Source: Candidatus Saccharimonadota bacterium (GTDB lineage: Bacteria > Patescibacteriota > Microgenomatia > UBA1406 > GWC2-37-13). Taken from it: 32,000 nucleotides of DNA. Within the stretch, counting starts at the first letter, position 1. Every line of letters begins with the position of its first letter. The DNA is taken from contig MGBH01000001.1 in NCBI GenBank assembly GCA_001790095.1, forward strand, positions 90,001 through 122,000. The letters run 5' to 3'. Of this stretch, positions 4,148-12,051 are shown in pieces. Position numbers and translations under genes: made by a program. The notes under the pieces are model-generated. The model made no database searches and was not told where the DNA came from. It saw nothing but the letters and a program-made list of their open reading frames with translations.

Positions 4148-4759
4148 ATGAAAAGCGAACAAATTATGGCACTAATTGCCATCTTATTATTTGTATTATT
4201 TATAGCATTTATGGTTACAAAAAAACAAGACAATGGAAAAAAGACCGAAACAAAAGAGAAATCTCAGTTGAGTATCGATACCAATAAAACATATACTGCG
4301 GTCATGAAGACTACAGAAGGCGTGATCAAGATTGAGTTTAATGCAAAACAAACCCCGATAACAGTCAATAATTTTGTTACCTTAGCGAAAAAAAAGTTTT
4401 ACAACAATACGGTTTTCCACCGAGCGATCAAGGGATTTATGATCCAGGGGGGTGATCCAAAGGGAGATGGTACGGGGGGACCAGGATATAGATTTGATGA
4501 TGAGAAATTTGAAGGCGAGTATACAAGAGGTACTATCGCTATGGCCAATGCCGGACCCAATACCAATGGGAGTCAGTTTTTCATCATGCATAAAGACTAC
4601 CCGCTTCCCAAAAATTACGTCATATTTGGTCGAGTAGTTGAAGGGCTTGATGTGGTAGACAAGATCGCTGAGACTCCGGTTGTGGATAACGGGATGGGTG
4701 AACAATCCAAGCCTGTATCGCAGGTTGTGATCAAGACGGTTGAGATCGTGGTCAAGTAG
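4148..4759 (+). CDS. Peptidyl-prolyl cis-trans isomerase, cyclophilin type, with an N-terminal membrane anchor
   Basis: FHRAIKGFMIQGGDP and GTIAMANAGPNTNGSQFFI cyclophilin signatures. N-terminal helix IMALIAILLFVLFIAFMV. Confidence 0.9.
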   Translation: MKSEQIMALIAILLFVLFIAFMVTKKQDNGKKTETKEKSQLSIDTNKTYTAVMKTTEGVIKIEFNAKQTPITVNNFVTLAKKKFYNNTVFHRAIKGFMIQGGDPKGDGTGGPGYRFDDEKFEGEYTRGTIAMANAGPNTNGSQFFIMHKDYPLPKNYVIFGRVVEGLDVVDKIAETPVVDNGMGEQSKPVSQVVIKTVEIVVK

Positions 4760-4762
4760 GCT

Positions 4763-4796
4763 CCTTCATGAGATCTTCATGGATTATTAGTATAAT
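4763..4796 (+). promoter_or_regulatory. Direct-repeat operator CCTTCATGAGATCTTCATG plus TATAAT (putative autoregulated promoter of the two-component operon)
   Basis: CTTCATG occurs at 4764-4770 and 4775-4781 (11-bp period), then 9 nt, then TATAAT at 4791-4796. It is 16/19 identical to the site at 6485-6503. Confidence 0.5.
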
Positions 4797-4803
4797 AGGA
4801 GGC

Positions 4804-5487
4804 ATGAGGATCCTATTAGTTGAGGATGAAAAGAGGCTTTCGCACTATATAAAAAAAGGACTTGTTGAAGAAGGTTTTGCAGTAGATCAAGCTTACGATG
4901 GAGAAGAGGGTCTATATTTTGCCAAAGAAGAAACATATGACATCATCATACTTGACGTCATGCTTCCAAAACTAAGTGGGGTTGAGGTCTGCAAGCGTTT
5001 TCGAGGCTTCAAAAAGACAACTCCTATCCTTATGCTTACCGCCCGAAGCGAAACTGAAGACAAAATATTGGGACTTGAGTCAGGAGCAGATGACTATCTG
5101 ACAAAACCCTTCGTATTTGCTGAGCTTAAAGCACGTATCAATGCACTGCTTCGCAGAAGCTATCGCCAAGTTTCAAACATACTAACGATAAGAGATCTGG
5201 AGATAGATCCAACAAAACATTCGGTAAAAAGAGACAAAAAAGATATTAAATTAACCCCAAAGGAATTTGCGATCCTGGAACTTCTTATGCGAAGAAAATA
5301 TGAAGTAGTAACTCGAACACAGGTAATTGAACATGTCTGGGACTATAATTTTGACAGTCTTTCAAACGTTGTTGATGTATTCATAGGGACACTAAGAAAA
5401 AAAATCGATAGGGGACATAAGACAAAACTTATCCATACACTACATGGTGTCGGTTATATGATTTCTGACAAAACGCCAAAAGTATGA
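4804..5487 (+). CDS. OmpR/PhoB-family response regulator (CopR/CusR-like by context)
   Basis: Receiver domain MRILLVEDE...ILDVMLP...LTA...K, and a winged-helix output domain (LTPKEFAILELL...HTLHGVGY). AGGAGG lies just upstream of ATG 4804, which is preferred over the tracked 4768. Confidence 0.9.
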   Translation: MRILLVEDEKRLSHYIKKGLVEEGFAVDQAYDGEEGLYFAKEETYDIIILDVMLPKLSGVEVCKRFRGFKKTTPILMLTARSETEDKILGLESGADDYLTKPFVFAELKARINALLRRSYRQVSNILTIRDLEIDPTKHSVKRDKKDIKLTPKEFAILELLMRRKYEVVTRTQVIEHVWDYNFDSLSNVVDVFIGTLRKKIDRGHKTKLIHTLHGVGYMISDKTPKV

Positions 5488-6482
5488 GACATGTCTTTCA
5501 AACGCTTCGATTTAAGCTTCTCTTTTGGTACTTGTTGAGTCTTGTGATTCTGGGTGTATTTATTATTTTGACCATTCATATCCTGCAATATAAATATAGT
5601 GTTCAGCTTATAATTGGTTTATTCATCTTACTTGCCATAATCGGTTTTGTAGTCGTATATAAAATAACTCAGACCATAACATTTCTTTCTTTTCAAATGA
5701 GACAGATCTCAAGTAAAAACTTGGATAAAAAAATAACTTCTATTAAAGGAAACGATGAAATAGGACAACTGGCAAACTCTTTTAATGGATTGCTTGATCG
5801 ATTAGATAAAGCATTTAAAAGAGAGCGTCAGTTTATTGCTGATGTCGCACATGAGATGAAGACTCCTATTGCTACTCTTCGAAGCAGCTTTGAAGTTACC
5901 CTGCGAAAAGAAAGAACAAATGAAGAATACAAAAAGATGATCAAAGATTCGATTATTGAGACTGACAGATTAACCACAACTCTTAAAGATATTTTAGATT
6001 TGGCATGGAGTGAAGTGCCTAACGAAAAACTAAGGGAGTATTTTAACCTGTCCCAACTTATGAGCGAACTATCAGAGATAGCGCAAAAATTAGCGATGAA
6101 AAAAAACATAACAGTATCATCGAATGTCAAATCTCAGATAACGATAAAGGGGTTCCGCGAACGTTTAGGAAGAGCCTTGCTTAATATAATTGATAACGCA
6201 ATAAAATATACCCCTTCCAATGGGAGAATATACATTGCATTGATTAAAGAACAGAATAATGCACTTATCACCATAGAAGATAATGGTCAAGGGATTGAAA
6301 GCAAAGAATTAGACCATATTTTTGACCGGTTTTATCGAGGCTCCAAAGCTGAAAAGACATTTGGTGCTGGATTAGGTCTGGCTATTGCAAAAGCCACAAT
6401 AAAGATGCATAAAGGAGTAATACAAGTACAAAGCAGGCCCAAGATTGGTACAACTTTTTCAATAGCTATCCCGCTCTCTTGA
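5484..6482 (+). CDS. Sensor histidine kinase of the intramembrane-sensing type (2 TM with a ~7-aa loop, HAMP, HisKA, HATPase_c)
   Basis: H-box FIADVAHEMKTPI, N-box LLNIIDNAIKYT, G-boxes EDNGQGI and GAGLGLAI. ATGA overlap with the regulator gene. Confidence 0.9.
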   Translation: MRHVFQTLRFKLLFWYLLSLVILGVFIILTIHILQYKYSVQLIIGLFILLAIIGFVVVYKITQTITFLSFQMRQISSKNLDKKITSIKGNDEIGQLANSFNGLLDRLDKAFKRERQFIADVAHEMKTPIATLRSSFEVTLRKERTNEEYKKMIKDSIIETDRLTTTLKDILDLAWSEVPNEKLREYFNLSQLMSELSEIAQKLAMKKNITVSSNVKSQITIKGFRERLGRALLNIIDNAIKYTPSNGRIYIALIKEQNNALITIEDNGQGIESKELDHIFDRFYRGSKAEKTFGAGLGLAIAKATIKMHKGVIQVQSRPKIGTTFSIAIPLS

Positions 6483-6484
6483 GA

Positions 6485-6519
6485 CCTTCATAATATCTTC
6501 ATACTCTGTCTGTTATGAT
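6485..6519 (+). promoter_or_regulatory. Direct-repeat operator CCTTCATAATATCTTCATA plus extended -10 TGtTATGAT (putative regulator-dependent promoter of the metal operon)
   Basis: CTTCATA occurs at 6486-6492 and 6497-6503 (11-bp period), then 10 nt, then TATGAT at 6514-6519 preceded by TGt. Confidence 0.5.
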
Positions 6520-6549
6520 GGTACTGATTATCAATTTGATAAAACAAAG

Positions 6550-8367
6550 ATGAACAAAACCACTGTAAATATTAAAGGTATGCACTGCCGATCGTGCGAA
6601 ATCTTAGTTGAAGATGAGCTTCTGAAAGTTGAAGGAGTAAAAAAGGCAGTTGTAAATGAAAAAGAAGGGATGGCATACGTATACTATGAAGGCAATATTG
6701 ATCATGGAAAAGTTAAACAAGCGGTGTGTGATGCGGGATATGAAATAGGAATAAAAGAAAAAGCCCCTCTTTTTTCAAAACGAATGCAAGATTACAAAGA
6801 ACTAGGATTTGCGTTTCTTGTGATAATAATTCTTTATCTCATTGGAAAAGAACTCGGTATATTTAATCTTGCCATTAAATCAGGCAGTAACTATAGCAGT
6901 TTGCCAGTTGTATTTTTAGTTGGTCTTACTGCAGGAGTTTCAACCTGTATGGCTTTAGTTGGGGGGTTGGTGCTTGCTGCTTCAGCTCGTTTTGTAGAGA
7001 AACATCCGCAGTCTTCAACTCTCCAAAAATTTAAACCACATTTGTTTTTTAATTTAGGTCGGATTATATCTTTTTTTGTTTTTGGTTGGATCATTGGATA
7101 TGCTGGATCATTATTTCAACTGTCATCAACGACATTAGGGTTATTGACAATTGCAGTGGGTGGGATCATGGTCTTGCTGGGTTTGCAGCTGACCGAAATA
7201 TTCCCACGTCTCAATGGATTAAATTTCACGTTACCCAAAGGGATATCACGAGCTTTTGGAATACGGGAACAGACACAAAAAGAATATAGTCATGCAAATT
7301 CCTTCATGATGGGAACGATGACATTTTTCTTACCATGTGGGTTTACCCAGGCGATGCAACTTTTTGCCATAAGTAGCGGTAATCCTATGGTGGGAGCTTT
7401 AACCATGGGTGTATTTGCCCTTGGGACTGCTCCGGGGCTTTTGGGGATTGGAGGACTGACATCTATCATCAAGGGAGCTTTTGCAAAACCTTTTTTTAAA
7501 TTTGCAGGGCTTGTGGTTATATTCATGGCACTCTTTAATATTTCAAACGGGTTAAATCTTGCGGGGGTTAATGTTAGCGCATTTTTAGATCAAAACTCAG
7601 TTGCCCTTACTCAAACCGATCCCAATGTGACTATGGAAAACGGGGTTCAGATCGTACGTATGACTCAAAAATCAAACGGTTATTTACCCAATTCATTTAT
7701 TATAAAAAAAGGGATTCCAGTTAAATGGATTGTTACATCAGAGGATGCATTTAGTTGTGCAGCGAGTATCGTATCATCTAAACTCAATATCCGCAAAAAT
7801 CTTGAAGCAGGAGAAAACATCATAGAATTTATACCTACTGAAACAGGTAGCATTCGTTTTACATGCAGTATGGGGATGTATAGCGGATCATTCAATGTCA
7901 TAGATGAAACAGATAAGCAAAGCAGTAAAACCCAGATAGATTCACAGACGCAAGCAGCAGATATTGACTTTACCAAGCCAATCAGTGCTTGTAGTGCAAG
8001 TGGGGGTGGGTGCGGATGCGGGCAAAAACCGCAAAGACAGGCAGCATTGGATGCAGATGAAACACCACCTGTTGCAGCAGAACAAAAGGATTCAGTCCAA
8101 GTTCTCAAAGCAACTTATTCGGTGACAGAGGATGTTAGGCCAAATAAATTCACCGTGAAATCAGGAGTCCCGGTACGGTTTGAAATTGATGCAAAAGAAG
8201 ATGGACAGGGGTGTATGGGAAGCATCATGATTCCTGGACTTGACAATAATCCACAGGGATTTGAAAAAGGGAAAATAACCATATTATCATTTACTCCAAC
8301 CAAGGCAGGTACTTATACTATAACTTGTGCGATGGGGGTGCCAAGAGGATTAATAGCCGTAAACTAA
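6550..8367 (+). CDS. Fusion membrane protein: N-terminal HMA domain, 7-TM DsbD_2/UreH-like core, two C-terminal cupredoxin-like (COG4633-type) domains
   Basis: HMA GMHCRSCE (aa 1-66). About 7 TM helices (aa 85-335) with intramembrane STCMA and LPCGF. Domain 1 is aa ~364-450 (FSCAAS...FTCSMGMY). A Cys cluster CSASGGGCGCG lies at aa 481-491. Domain 2 is aa ~515-605 (GCMGSIM...ITCAMGV). Confidence 0.75.
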   Translation: MNKTTVNIKGMHCRSCEILVEDELLKVEGVKKAVVNEKEGMAYVYYEGNIDHGKVKQAVCDAGYEIGIKEKAPLFSKRMQDYKELGFAFLVIIILYLIGKELGIFNLAIKSGSNYSSLPVVFLVGLTAGVSTCMALVGGLVLAASARFVEKHPQSSTLQKFKPHLFFNLGRIISFFVFGWIIGYAGSLFQLSSTTLGLLTIAVGGIMVLLGLQLTEIFPRLNGLNFTLPKGISRAFGIREQTQKEYSHANSFMMGTMTFFLPCGFTQAMQLFAISSGNPMVGALTMGVFALGTAPGLLGIGGLTSIIKGAFAKPFFKFAGLVVIFMALFNISNGLNLAGVNVSAFLDQNSVALTQTDPNVTMENGVQIVRMTQKSNGYLPNSFIIKKGIPVKWIVTSEDAFSCAASIVSSKLNIRKNLEAGENIIEFIPTETGSIRFTCSMGMYSGSFNVIDETDKQSSKTQIDSQTQAADIDFTKPISACSASGGGCGCGQKPQRQAALDADETPPVAAEQKDSVQVLKATYSVTEDVRPNKFTVKSGVPVRFEIDAKEDGQGCMGSIMIPGLDNNPQGFEKGKITILSFTPTKAGTYTITCAMGVPRGLIAVN

Positions 8368-8420: not shown

Positions 8421-8627
8421 ATGGTACAAACAATCAGGATACAATTATCGGGTTTAACATGCACATCGTGCGAGAAGGTGATTGCAAAAAAACTGCAAAC
8501 GATTGACGGAGTACAGGAAGTACATGTGTCGGTGTTAAACGGCTTAACTTTAATCACTGCCTCAAGACCCATTACAAAAGATGAAGTGACTAAAGTATTA
8601 CAAGGAACTCATTATAAAGTTAATTAA
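8421..8627 (+). CDS. copZ: Copper chaperone (single HMA domain)
   Basis: 68 aa, GLTCTSCE metal-binding motif, ferredoxin-like HMA length. Lies immediately upstream of the P1B-ATPase gene. Confidence 0.85.
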
Positions 8628-8647: not shown

Positions 8648-11548
8648 ATGAAAAAGCACGTATTTTTTACCGTTTCCGGAATGCATTGTTCATCATGTGA
8701 ACTATTAACAAAAGATGAACTCTCCACGTTACCCGGTGTGAGCGAAGTGGGTATTGATCATAAATCCGGTAAAGGAGTGCTTATACTTGATGAGGAAAAA
8801 AATTCAGAAAACGACGTCATTAAAGCCATCATAAAAGCAGGATATACGGCAACTATTGAAAGAAGTGAGAATATGATATTCAAAAAGAATGACGATATTG
8901 AAATAATAAAAAAAACTGCAAAAGCAAAGGAACCATTACGGGTTATGTTTGAATCACGTATTACTGCCGATGGCCAGATGGTTGAAAAAGAAGATGGAAA
9001 GATGCAGTTTGAAGGAAAAGTAGAAAACAAGAAAAAAGCTGAGTTTGTCATTCCAAAAGGTCATGAGCAAGAAACCGACAAGTATATACATGGAATCATG
9101 AAATCTCAGAATTTTATGAGACTCATAAGCGAAAAAGATGAGATAGAACATAAAGAGGTGGTCAATAATCAATCTTTACGCAAAGAACCAAACACTCAAA
9201 AGCGTATCTTTCTTTCTCTTTCCGGTATGCATTGTACATCTTGCGCATTGATTATTGAAAAGTCTTTGAGTAAGGTACAAGGTGTAAAGGAGGCTCATGT
9301 AAATTTTGCGGCTGAAAAAGCGTCAATTATTTACGACGAATCATCCGTAAAAACAGACGTTTTGGTTGATACTGTTAAAAAAACGGGGTACTCTGCAACA
9401 ATTCTTGATGAAAAAGATACCGAGTTTGAATCCAAAAAAAGAAACAAGGAGATGAAAAATTTGTTTAACAAATTTGCAGTAAGTCTTTTCTTGAGTTTTC
9501 CAATGTTGTATTTTATGCTTTTTGACTTTTTTCCTTGGTTTCCTGGGGCAAAATTATTACTTCCGCTTGTAGGCATTATTTCACTTATATTAAGTACTCC
9601 GGTCCAATTCATAATTGGTAAAGGATTTTATAAGGGTGCATGGGCTGCACTGCGAATGAAAACCTTTAACATGGATTCTCTTATTGCAATTGGGACGACG
9701 GTTGCATATTTTTACAGTCTGGTTAATTTTATTTTATATTACGTAAATACAAAATCGTTGATAGGTATGAGTGGCGAAAAAATACCTGAGCTTTATTTTG
9801 AAACTGCAGCGTTTCTTATAACCTTTGTTATATTGGGGAAATGGCTTGAAGCGCAGGCAAAGGGAAGGACATCTGATGCGATCAAAAAGTTGATGGGCCT
9901 TCAGGCAAAAACAGCACGCGTTCTTCGAAATGGTGAAACGTTGGATATTCCAATCGAAGAAGTCGTCCACAATGATGTTATATTAGTGCGCCCGGGTGAA
10001 AAAGTGCCGGTTGATGGAGTAATTATTAAAGGTTCCTCTGCGGTTGATGAATCTATGATAACAGGTGAAAGTTTACCTGTTGAAAAACAGATTAATGATA
10101 TGGTGGTTGGTGGGACTATGAATAAGGTCGGAAGCTTTGAGTTCAAAACAACGAGGATAGGGTCGGAGACTACGCTTTCACAGATTATTCGTTTGGTTGA
10201 AGAGGCTCAAGGATCCAAAGCTCCTATCCAGGATTTTGCGGATAAGATATCTGCATATTTTGTTCCGGCTGTCATTGGAATTGCTGTATTAACATTTGTG
10301 ATTTGGTATTTAGTGCTTGGAGCCTCGCTTTCTTTTTCATTGATGGCCTTTACTGCAGTTATCGTTATTGCATGTCCGTGTGCTTTGGGACTTGCGACAC
10401 CAACCGCCATTATGGTGGGTACGGGTAAAGGCGCAGAGTACGGAATGCTCATTAAAGGAGGGGAACCTCTCGAGGGAGCATGCAAAATCAATACGATTGT
10501 CTTTGATAAAACAGGAACACTCACAAAAGGAAAGCCGACAGTTACCGATATTATTTCCTTTAAAGAAATGGATGAAGATGAAGTTCTGACAATTGCTGCA
10601 TCACTTGAAAAACAATCTGAGCATCCATTAGCCGAGGCAATTTATACCTATGCACAGGAGGAAGGGCTTGGCTTAAGTACAGTTGAAGCATTTAAGGCTG
10701 TTCCGGGACATGGAGTACAGGGAAAGACAGATGGTGCGGAGTATTATTTTGGGAATAGAAAATTAATGGAACGGGAAGCTGGACTGTCTGTTGAAAAAAT
10801 AAACCGTAAGATGAGTCGATTGGAGGAGCAAGGAAAAACAGTTATGATTCTCTCAAATAAAACTGAAATATTAGGGATTATCGGAGTTGCCGACACCGTC
10901 AAGGAAACTTCAAAAGAGGCAGTTGAGAAGCTCAAAAAACTAGGCATTGAAGTATATATGATAACGGGAGATAACGTAAAAACTGCAAGAGCAATCGCTT
11001 CACAGGTTGGTATTACCAATGTGCTGGCCGAAGTTCTTCCTGAAGATAAGGCACAAAATGTCAAGAGACTACAAGATAAGGGTAAAAAGGTTGCTATGGT
11101 TGGGGACGGTATTAATGATGCGCCAGCATTAGCACAGGCAGATCTTGGAATCGCTATGGGGTCAGGTACTGACGTGGCTATGGAGGCGGGAGGTATTGTC
11201 ATCATTAAAAACGATCTTCGCGATGTAGCTAATGCCATCGATCTTTCTAAAACCACGATGAATAAGATTAAGCAAAACATGTTTTTTGCTTTGTTTTATA
11301 ACGTCATGGGTATACCTGTTGCAGCACGTATGTTTGCAGGTATAGGATTGGTCTTGAAGCCAGAGCTTGCCGGACTTGCCATGGCCCTAAGCTCAATATC
11401 TGTGGTTAGCAACTCGCTTTTACTAAGAGGATACAAGCCCGGTAAAAGGAATATTCTTTCCACCATAGCGCCGATTATCATGATCTTACTGTTCTCATTT
11501 ATTTTCTTTGAGTTTGCAAAATTTAGTTCAGGGGCAATGAAGAGATAA
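8648..11548 (+). CDS. copA: Copper-translocating P1B-type ATPase with two N-terminal HMA domains
   Basis: GMHCSSCE and [11 protein letters not shown] motifs, TGES, CPC in a TM helix, DKTGTLT phosphorylation site, HP motif (SEHPLA), GDGINDAP hinge. Confidence 0.95.
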
Positions 11549-11551
11549 TCT

Positions 11552-11560
11552 TGCTATAAT
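11552..11560 (+). promoter_or_regulatory. Extended -10 box TGcTATAAT, 8 nt upstream of ATG 11569 (leaderless promoter candidate)
   Basis: The 20-bp gap after copA contains only this box and no SD. Confidence 0.4.
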
Positions 11561-11568
11561 AAATCAGT

Positions 11569-12051
11569 ATGATACGTAACATTGTTGTTACTCTTGAATG
11601 CTTTGTAAAAAAAGGTAATAAATATCTACTCCTTCACCGTAACAAAACTAAACGAATTATGCCTGATATATGGATGGCGCCAGGCGGACATCGTGAGTTC
11701 AATGAAGGGCTTTTTGCTTGTGCTAGGCGTGAGGTTGAAGAAGAGACAGGATTAAAAATAAAAAATCTCCGGATCAAAGCGGTCGGGAATGCATATGTCA
11801 AAGATATTGACCAGGAATTCTATTTTCATATGTTGGTAGCTGACTACGAGGGGGGAGTTTTGAAGACACATGATGAAGATGGAACATTTGAGTGGCTTAC
11901 TGGGGAGCAAATCATGAAGCTTAACAAACTTCTTCCTGAATTGAAAGAAATATTGCCACATGTCTTGTCTGACAGTAAAGATATTATCTCTTATCAAGCG
12001 GCATATGAAAAAGGGACACAGATGAGTTTTTTTGAGATAGAAAGACCTTAA
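11569..12051 (+). CDS. NUDIX hydrolase
   Basis: Canonical Nudix box GHREFNEGLFACARREVEEETGL (Gx5Ex7REUxEExGU). Confidence 0.8.
   Translation: MIRNIVVTLECFVKKGNKYLLLHRNKTKRIMPDIWMAPGGHREFNEGLFACARREVEEETGLKIKNLRIKAVGNAYVKDIDQEFYFHMLVADYEGGVLKTHDEDGTFEWLTGEQIMKLNKLLPELKEILPHVLSDSKDIISYQAAYEKGTQMSFFEIERP

Follow-up and report, generated by a model that had tools for sequence, protein, structure and literature searches.

Two copies of a tandem TCTTCAT repeat as probable operators of a copper-linked two-component system in a Patescibacteria genome

Introduction

In Corynebacterium glutamicum, the response regulator CopR binds the site TGAAGATTTgaTGAAGATTT, as established by electrophoretic mobility shift assay (EMSA) and mutagenesis, and activates both its own operon and a divergent copper operon; according to the same authors, CopS senses extracytoplasmic copper (PMC3140484). 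The proteobacterial regulators CusR, CopR, PcoR and AgrR recognise a copper box of the form ATKACA-N4-TGTMAT, at which they behave as type II activators with positive autoregulation (PMC7380067), and a secondary source mentions two direct repeats in the copM promoter of Synechocystis. Outside metal regulation, PhoB binds the Pho box (core CTGTCAT), in which 7-bp direct repeats are separated by an A/T-rich spacer of 4 bp, as a head-to-tail dimer (PMC4415409), and tandem head-to-tail dimers on such repeats are established for PhoP as well (PMC4415409; PMC4832192). The Candidate Phyla Radiation (CPR)/Patescibacteria retain only about five two-component systems (PMC7137472). Here we analyse a tandem TCTTCAT repeat, hereafter the box, that occurs at two promoters of a 32,000-nucleotide stretch of a Patescibacteria genome (contig MGBH01000001.1, positions 90,001 to 122,000; this whole stretch is called the window), one in front of a regulator-kinase operon and the other in front of a metal operon.

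The explanation that best accounts for the whole of the data, to which we give a probability of about 0.8, is that the two boxes are the operators of the CopR/CusR-like regulator encoded between them, which would activate both promoters in class II fashion.

Results

The two boxes of the window

A first-pass annotation of the window had described a 19-bp direct repeat shared by the two promoters. Its site coordinates and sequences, the 16/19 identity, the 11-bp period and the -10 hexamers all proved to be exact. The elements are the following.

4763-4781, + strand: box A, CCTTCATGAGATCTTCATG, within the 44 nt that separate the cyclophilin gene from the regulator gene
4764-4780, + strand: core of box A, CTTCATGAGATCTTCAT, two TCTTCAT-type half-sites with an 11 bp period
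4791-4796, + strand: -10 hexamer TATAAT of promoter A, nine nt past the 19-bp site A (10 nt after the conserved box) and 7 nt before the regulator ATG
6485-6503, + strand: box B, CCTTCATAATATCTTCATA, beginning 3 nt past the kinase stop codon
6486-6502, + strand: core of box B, CTTCATAATATCTTCAT
6514-6519, + strand: -10 hexamer TATGAT of promoter B, ten nt past the 19-bp site B (11 nt after the conserved box)

Boxes A and B are identical at 16 of 19 positions, with CTTCAT half-sites repeated every 11 bp, and the unit that is actually conserved is 18 bp long, tCTTCAT-AAww-TCTTCAT, which refines the 19-bp description. No other paired CTTCAT had been seen in the window by eye, and an exact search of both strands for CTTCAT-N5-CTTCAT indeed returned two places only, boxes A and B, both intergenic and on the coding strand. 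A degenerate 19-mer with up to 3 mismatches likewise has 2 matches in the window, against 0.05 expected. The sequences flanking the two boxes are unrelated, which indicates a short shared motif and rules out a duplicated segment or a mobile repeat as the source of both.

The two copies are not equivalent. When the window, from a genome of 37% G+C, was scanned with a weight matrix derived from other genomes, box B scored 24.3 bits, box A 16.4 and the next-best position 11.3; in shuffled windows, the mean maximum with the same matrix was 9.6 bits, and the largest value, reached in one of 50 shuffles, was 18.6. Box A is atypical in its G-rich spacer, GAGA, and in the 10 nt, not 11, that separate it from the -10 hexamer. 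Taken alone, it is a weaker site than box B.

The repeat search also returned a possible third half-site, CTCTCTT (6474-6480, + strand), in phase and 11 bp upstream of box B. As it matches at 4 of 7 positions and could be due to chance, it is not claimed here.

Conservation of the box in orthologous loci

The regulator has many relatives with 70-89% identity, and those that are named belong to Candidatus Roizmanbacteria, Microgenomates or Patescibacteria. Our comparison set consisted of 13 non-redundant loci, namely the window and the surroundings of twelve orthologous regulators (70-86% identity to the window regulator). These loci contain 23 boxes, 18 of them exact, with the consensus tCTTCAT-AAww-TCTTCATr, i.e. 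7 bp repeated directly after an A/T spacer of 4 bp. Both boxes of the window, and 21 more in related loci, thus consist of direct half-sites one helical turn apart. Over the 181.6 kb that twelve of the loci provide, exact CTTCAT-N5-CTTCAT was found 17 times, against 0.05 expected from first-order Markov simulations, and all 17 occurrences are intergenic and on the strand of the regulator; the thirteenth locus (L184) has one further exact box. Among the inexact boxes, five have 1-2 core mismatches, and a sixth, in L181, came from the weight-matrix scan. All boxes are intergenic or touch only the end of a gene, except that one lies over a called open reading frame (ORF) of 40 aa.

The motif separates well from its background. 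With a matrix built from the 23 sites, every real box scores at least 19 bits, and the best other position in all loci, which falls inside a regulator coding sequence, 13.7. Scanning ~150 kb of flanking housekeeping and other unrelated genes yielded no box, so that in these loci the motif does not occur at background frequency.

We also ran the alignment of orthologous intergenic regions suggested in the first-pass annotation, each region running from where the upstream gene stops to the start codon behind the box. Apart from the box itself, the ten promoter regions aligned have only a T-A pair within the -10 region and the start codon in common; box B aligns with the boxes of 9 other loci.

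The genes behind the boxes are recurrent. A box precedes the HMA-DsbD_2-cupredoxin/CopZ/CopA operon in all eight loci that carry this operon, which gives a positive answer to the question of whether the motif is kept at orthologous loci. A second operon, present in L161 (for example at 4388-6988), L164, L170, L176, L178, L180, L181 and L182, is headed by a box in 8 of 8 cases. Encoded in it are DUF1573, a DsbD-like membrane protein, a ~315-aa protein of unknown type and, in some loci, DUF5676; the operon runs into the regulator-kinase genes in seven loci and follows the kinase gene in L181. The other genes headed by a box are DUF2933 together with a P-type ATPase, thioredoxin/DsbA, a small cupredoxin and CsoR, to which L181 adds CopA itself and a YkuD gene. 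When the window was searched by tblastn for the module genes of its relatives, the queries being CsoR, DUF1573, DsbD-like, DUF5676, DUF2933, DsbA, small cupredoxin, YtkA, multicopper oxidase and YkuD, only CopA was found.

Two observations concern particular lineages. In L182, a CsoR-family repressor gene (4432-4717) lies directly behind the box, its GTG start 6 nt after a TAAAAT; CsoR is also found at L180 4448 and L178 4489, as remnants, and the reading frame of L178 looks degraded. With CsoR behind a box, the two-component system would control a second, cytoplasmic copper sensor in those genomes. In L181, the sites at 1476 (- strand), 3225, 5563 and 7559 may reflect a lineage-specific shift of the motif.

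Geometry of the box promoters

The Pho box lies ~10-11 nt upstream of the -10 hexamer and replaces a missing -35 element, a class II geometry that was reportedly worked out by Makino and co-workers and by Blanco and co-workers. The boxes studied here are placed in much the same way. Of 22 boxes measured, 19 have their best TAnnnT hexamer at a distance of exactly 11 nt downstream, a count that becomes 20 of 23 when L184, whose TATTAT at 11 nt was read by eye, is included. At the canonical -35 position, between 0 and 2 bases out of 6 match TTGACA, whereas the box-less regulator promoter of L169 is a canonical TTGACA-17-TACAAT. If the -10 hexamer is taken as -12 to -7, the transcript starts being predicted ones, the box spans about -41 to -24.

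The half-sites had been said to occupy the -35 position. The lack of a -35 consensus and the fixed phasing agree with this, but the box straddles the -35 position instead of exactly replacing the -35 hexamer. A box in fixed position over the -35 region, with a -10 hexamer and no -35 consensus, is the arrangement of a class II site; judging from the missing -35 element and the rigid phasing of the tandem repeat, the box is probably a site of class II activation. The tandem repeat, the 11-nt phasing and the absent -35 element are consistent with the OmpR/PhoB-type class II geometry initially put forward.

At promoter B, the -10 hexamer is part of the stretch TGTTATGAT at 6511-6519, and transcription is predicted to start at about 6526, leaving a 24-nt leader. 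Transcription from promoter A should start at 4803/4804. In 9 of 12 loci, TATAAT or TACAAT is found 6-7 nt upstream of the regulator ATG (9 nt in L181), and the bases between this hexamer and the ATG are not conserved in relatives; in the window they form an AGGAGG (4797-4802) only 1 nt away from the ATG. A hexamer conserved so close to the start codon, without conservation of the intervening AGGAGG, suggests that the mRNA of promoter A is leaderless.

An RNA element is an unlikely explanation of the box, because it lies upstream of the -10 hexamer; an Rfam scan of the window found no known RNA family, the two gaps included. Intrinsic terminators were predicted neither between the cyclophilin and regulator genes nor between the kinase and HMA genes, and read-through transcription into the two operons is possible.

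Promoters of the leaderless type are visible elsewhere in the window. A TA[TCA]AAT hexamer is found 5-9 nt before the start codon of ten window ORFs of at least 90 codons (starts at 4148, 4804, 11569, 18593, 24162, 24621, 26256 and 26945 on the + strand, 26192 and 24101 on the - strand), with a sharp positional peak relative to other offsets, which suggests that leaderless mRNAs are common in this genome. A search of the available literature for leaderless transcripts in CPR bacteria found no relevant paper. The other leaderless/TATAAT promoters of the window carry no box. One of them belongs to the NUDIX gene that follows copA; with its own TATAAT 8 nt before the ATG (11555-11571), this gene is probably a separate leaderless transcription unit outside the copper operon.

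The regulator, the kinase and the copper genes

The genes around the two boxes are listed below.

4148-4759, + strand: cyclophilin gene (Pfam/NCBIfam)
4804-5487, + strand: OmpR/PhoB-family response regulator, 227 aa (Pfam Response_reg and Trans_reg_C)
5484-6482, + strand: histidine kinase, 332 aa (Pfam HAMP, HisKA and HATPase_c), its start overlapping the regulator stop (ATGA)
6550-8367, + strand: HMA (CRSC)-DsbD_2-cupredoxin fusion, first gene of the metal operon
8421-8627, + strand: CopZ-type metallochaperone (CTSC), from Pfam and motif
8648-11548, + strand: CopA, Cu(I) ATPase of the P1B type; the N-terminus has a pair of HMA domains with CxxC, followed by CPC (residue 576) and DKTGT (residue 620)

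Pfam and NCBIfam models agree with the identities first proposed for these genes, i.e. a regulator with REC and winged-helix domains, a HAMP-HisKA-HATPase kinase, HMA-DsbD_2-cupredoxin, CopZ and a CPC-type CopA. The receiver (PF00072, E = 1.2e-28) and winged-helix (PF00486, E = 2.5e-26) domains of the regulator are both clear. Its best NCBIfam model is the heavy-metal response regulator TIGR01387 (cztR_silR_copR), with 271.0 bits for a cut-off of 279.2, and the PhoB model scores lower, at 212 bits. Several orthologs are labelled 'heavy metal response regulator' by the Joint Genome Institute (JGI). In the ortholog alignment, all regulators begin with MRIL or MKIL, which places the true start at ATG 4804 and not at ATG 4768. 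The latter codon, inside box A, is used by some public gene calls (239-aa form P0002), and this longer call buries promoter A and box A in 'coding' sequence.

The kinase scores 232.3 bits with TIGR01386 (cztS_silS_copS), whose cut-off is 292.55, and matches model positions 168-457 only. At the N-terminus, two transmembrane helices are connected by a loop of only some 8 residues, and a periplasmic sensor domain is missing. In the alignment of this region (window 5484-5700), W15, Y16 and the His32 found at the outer end of helix 1 never vary among 11 orthologs. From this architecture, metal sensing could take place within the membrane or through an accessory protein.

CopA scores 652.7 bits with TIGR01511, the copper-translocating P-type ATPase model, for a cut-off of 397. 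The regulator-kinase pair is linked to metal-resistance genes, with copZ and copA downstream, and the linkage is kept in relatives; the boxes suggest that these genes would be under the control of the regulator. The fusion protein that opens the operon combines an N-terminal HMA CxxC, a DsbD_2 membrane domain and cupredoxin-like domains, with Cys-rich linkers; in the window copy, Pfam matches two cupredoxin-like stretches. Orthologs of the fusion in L164, L172, L174, L176, L178, L181 and L184 always come first behind the box, followed by copZ and copA.

Autoregulation and history of the window locus

An autoregulated regulon made of the regulator-kinase and copper operons had been predicted. 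Boxes do stand at both operons, but a box immediately before the regulator gene occurs in the window only, out of 13 loci. In seven relatives, the box stands before a longer operon that starts upstream, with DUF1573, and takes in the regulator gene; in L181, the nearest box faces a divergent YkuD gene, away from the regulator; and in four relatives the regulator gene is preceded by no box at all, which means that autoregulation is not a conserved property. Direct autoregulation as laid out in the window is unusual, and the arrangement varies between lineages.

The window locus may be a deletion derivative that has lost the DUF1573 module: this module is absent, the window shares with L164 and L176 a cyclophilin gene upstream of the locus, and the 5' flank of box A, GGCTCCTTCAT, resembles the flank of the DUF1573-operon box of L176, GACTCCTTCAT.

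The CTTCA repeat in more distant systems

Read on the opposite strand, the CopR box of C. glutamicum becomes AAATCTTCAtcAAATCTTCA, whose CTTCA core and 11-bp period are those of the window boxes. Box B agrees with the CopR box, written as TGAAGATTT-N2-TGAAGATTT, at 15 of 18 specified bases, and it is the only match of the window at 3 mismatches or fewer, where 0.25 are expected by chance. Box A, counted by hand, has 5 mismatches.

Scans of genome and metagenome contigs with the regulator gave paralogs with at most 56% identity among the matches listed, and the 160 loci obtained in this way, or 1.75 Mb, served as a paralog background. The box is rare within 160 bp upstream of 80 paralogous regulators, which suggests that the motif belongs to a sub-clade and not to the whole family. 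The shorter motif CTTCA-N6-CTTCA has 11 exact sites in the 1.75 Mb, 8 of which lie within ~115 bp upstream of a regulator gene or just downstream of a kinase gene. In high-GC loci, it is found at -40 to -113 of the regulator gene, at the following sites.

L021 (Actinomycetota metagenome-assembled genome), 7961 and 10028: boxes at -40 and +2027
L137 (metagenome contig), 1484 and 3593: boxes at -55 and +2054
L073 (Streptomyces sp.), 7941, - strand
L131 (metagenome contig), 1023, - strand
L143 (metagenome contig), 981

L021 and L137 thus have the two-box layout of the window, and in L021 the second box, after the kinase gene, precedes a PepSY protein and a multicopper oxidase. The regulators of L021, L137, L073 and L143 are 44-50% identical to that of the window. 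These sequences suggest that a CopR-like sub-clade, present in several phyla, recognises the CTTCA repeat.

Discussion

Judging from sequence, the box is very probably the binding site of the adjacent regulator. The mechanism that we propose builds on the box sequences, on their non-random occurrence, conservation and fixed distance from the -10 hexamer, on what the genes encode and on the core shared with the proven CopR box; from these we infer the binding protein, whether it activates or represses, the metal that induces and where transcription starts. A metal signal, most likely Cu(I) and possibly Ag(I), would cause the membrane kinase, devoid of a sensor domain, to phosphorylate the regulator. 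A head-to-tail dimer of the regulator would then bind the two TCTTCAT half-sites, 11 bp apart, at about -41 to -24, and recruit RNA polymerase as a class II activator, in the manner of PhoB on its Pho box. Promoter B would drive HMA-DsbD_2-cupredoxin, copZ and copA, and promoter A the regulator-kinase operon, as a leaderless mRNA, resulting in positive autoregulation.

Several points speak against this mechanism. The evidence is purely computational and concerns an uncultivated lineage, and the genome scan for background covered 32 kb of the genome. Box A reaches only 16.4 bits, when one of the 50 shuffled windows reaches 18.6, and has its G-rich spacer and 10-nt spacing; one box of the comparison set, at position 8685 of L164, lacks a TAnnnT at 11 nt; and L169, L172, L174 and L184 are without a box upstream of the regulator. 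As for the proteins, the regulator falls just below, and the kinase well below, the cut-offs of the curated heavy-metal families, and the kinase has no recognisable metal-sensing domain. Finally, its overlap with the promoter would also allow the box to act in repression.

This last point leads to the alternative that survives best, although we find it improbable: the same regulator would use the box as a repressor site, occluding RNA polymerase, and metal stress would bring derepression. The box does overlap the core promoter, at about -41 to -24, and MtrA and CzcR are OmpR-family regulators that repress from such positions (cited in PMC7380067). However, the box promoters, with 0-2 of 6 matches at -35 where the box-less promoter of the clade has TTGACA, are expected to be weak without an activator, their rigid 11-nt phasing to the -10 hexamer fits activation of the Pho-box type, and the characterised homologue, CopR of C. 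glutamicum, is an activator.

The chances are slimmer still that the box is the operator of another factor, for instance CsoR, its adjacency to the two-component genes being mere synteny. The idea draws on the CsoR-family gene directly downstream of the L182 box, on the remnants in L180 and L178, and on the link of box to regulator being one predicted from sequence. Yet the window, which has two boxes, contains neither CsoR nor, by tblastn, any other module gene of its relatives except CopA. Known CsoR operators are G/C-rich inverted repeats, whereas winged-helix dimers of the OmpR/PhoB type characteristically bind direct repeats in tandem, 11 bp apart. Moreover, the CTTCA repeat flanks regulator-kinase pairs in distant high-GC phyla and is found in the proven CopR site of C. 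glutamicum.

Chance, or a generic AT-rich promoter feature (UP-like, or the -35 of an alternative sigma factor) serving no dedicated regulator, would suit the 37% G+C of the genome and the shuffled window that, at 18.6 bits, outscores box A, but it is very improbable and already largely refuted by the 17 exact boxes against 0.05 expected in orthologous loci, by their restriction to copper-linked or locus-associated promoters when the other TATAAT promoters of the window are box-less, and by the fact that neither half-site lies at the 16-18 nt from the -10 hexamer expected of a -35 hexamer.

If the boxes are operators of the regulator encoded between them, as we favour, a wider proposal can be made, which we regard as tentative and rather unlikely in its entirety. 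Roizmanbacteria and their relatives would have a compact copper stimulon of the envelope, defined by the box; the kinase would sense copper within the membrane or via small membrane proteins that are themselves under box control, and the regulator would be expressed from a conserved leaderless promoter. Candidate accessory proteins would then be DUF5676, DUF2933, DUF1573, the DsbD-like protein and the HMA-DsbD_2-cupredoxin fusion. Were this true, the logic of sensing and expression would be distinct from that of the periplasmic sensors CusS and CopS, and several DUF families would receive their first functional assignments.

Cis-regulatory sites of CPR/Patescibacteria are almost undescribed, and these bacteria do not grow in pure culture. 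An 18-bp operator with a strict promoter geometry can be used directly in DNA affinity purification sequencing (DAP-seq), EMSA and heterologous reporters. The regulon delineated by the box would also tie DUF1573, DsbD-like, DUF5676, DUF2933 and the HMA-DsbD_2-cupredoxin fusion to copper handling.

Comparison with known systems

Like the window regulator, whose best NCBIfam family is theirs, CusR, CopR, PcoR and AgrR of proteobacteria are heavy-metal regulators of the OmpR family. Their copper box is different, both in sequence and in being an inverted repeat (6-4-6). Allowing up to 2 mismatches, it has 10 matches in the window, against 9.15 expected, none of them in 4760-4803 or 6483-6549; with a count at chance level and no match at either promoter, it was rejected as the operator of the window. 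CusS-type kinases also have a periplasmic sensor domain, whereas the window kinase has no counterpart of model positions 1-167.

The half-site of E. coli PhoB also differs, CTGTCAT against TCTTCAT, with the last four bases, TCAT, identical. PhoB responds to phosphate starvation and governs a different regulon.

CopRS of C. glutamicum shares several features with the window system. In both cases an OmpR-family regulator and its cognate kinase are encoded beside copper-resistance genes, the operator repeats a CTTCA core (on the reverse complement in C. glutamicum) directly every 11 bp, with perfect or near-perfect copies, the regulator's own operon is among the proven or predicted targets, and sites are very few per genome. 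There are also differences. A single site in the divergent region serves both operons in C. glutamicum, at -266 to -285 from one mapped start, whereas in the window each promoter has its own box, fixed at -41 to -24. The half-site is flanked by AAATCTTCA in C. glutamicum, and takes the form tCTTCAT with an A/T spacer in the window. The targets are a multicopper oxidase and CopB in the former and, as predicted, HMA-DsbD_2-cupredoxin, CopZ and CopA in the latter, and the window kinase, unlike CopS, exposes only a loop of ~8 residues outside the membrane. An OmpR-family metal regulon with a tandem-repeat operator is thus a known kind of switch, and our understanding of two-component metal regulation is unchanged by it; what the comparison adds is evidence that the CTTCA direct repeat of the actinobacterial CopR is shared across distant phyla.

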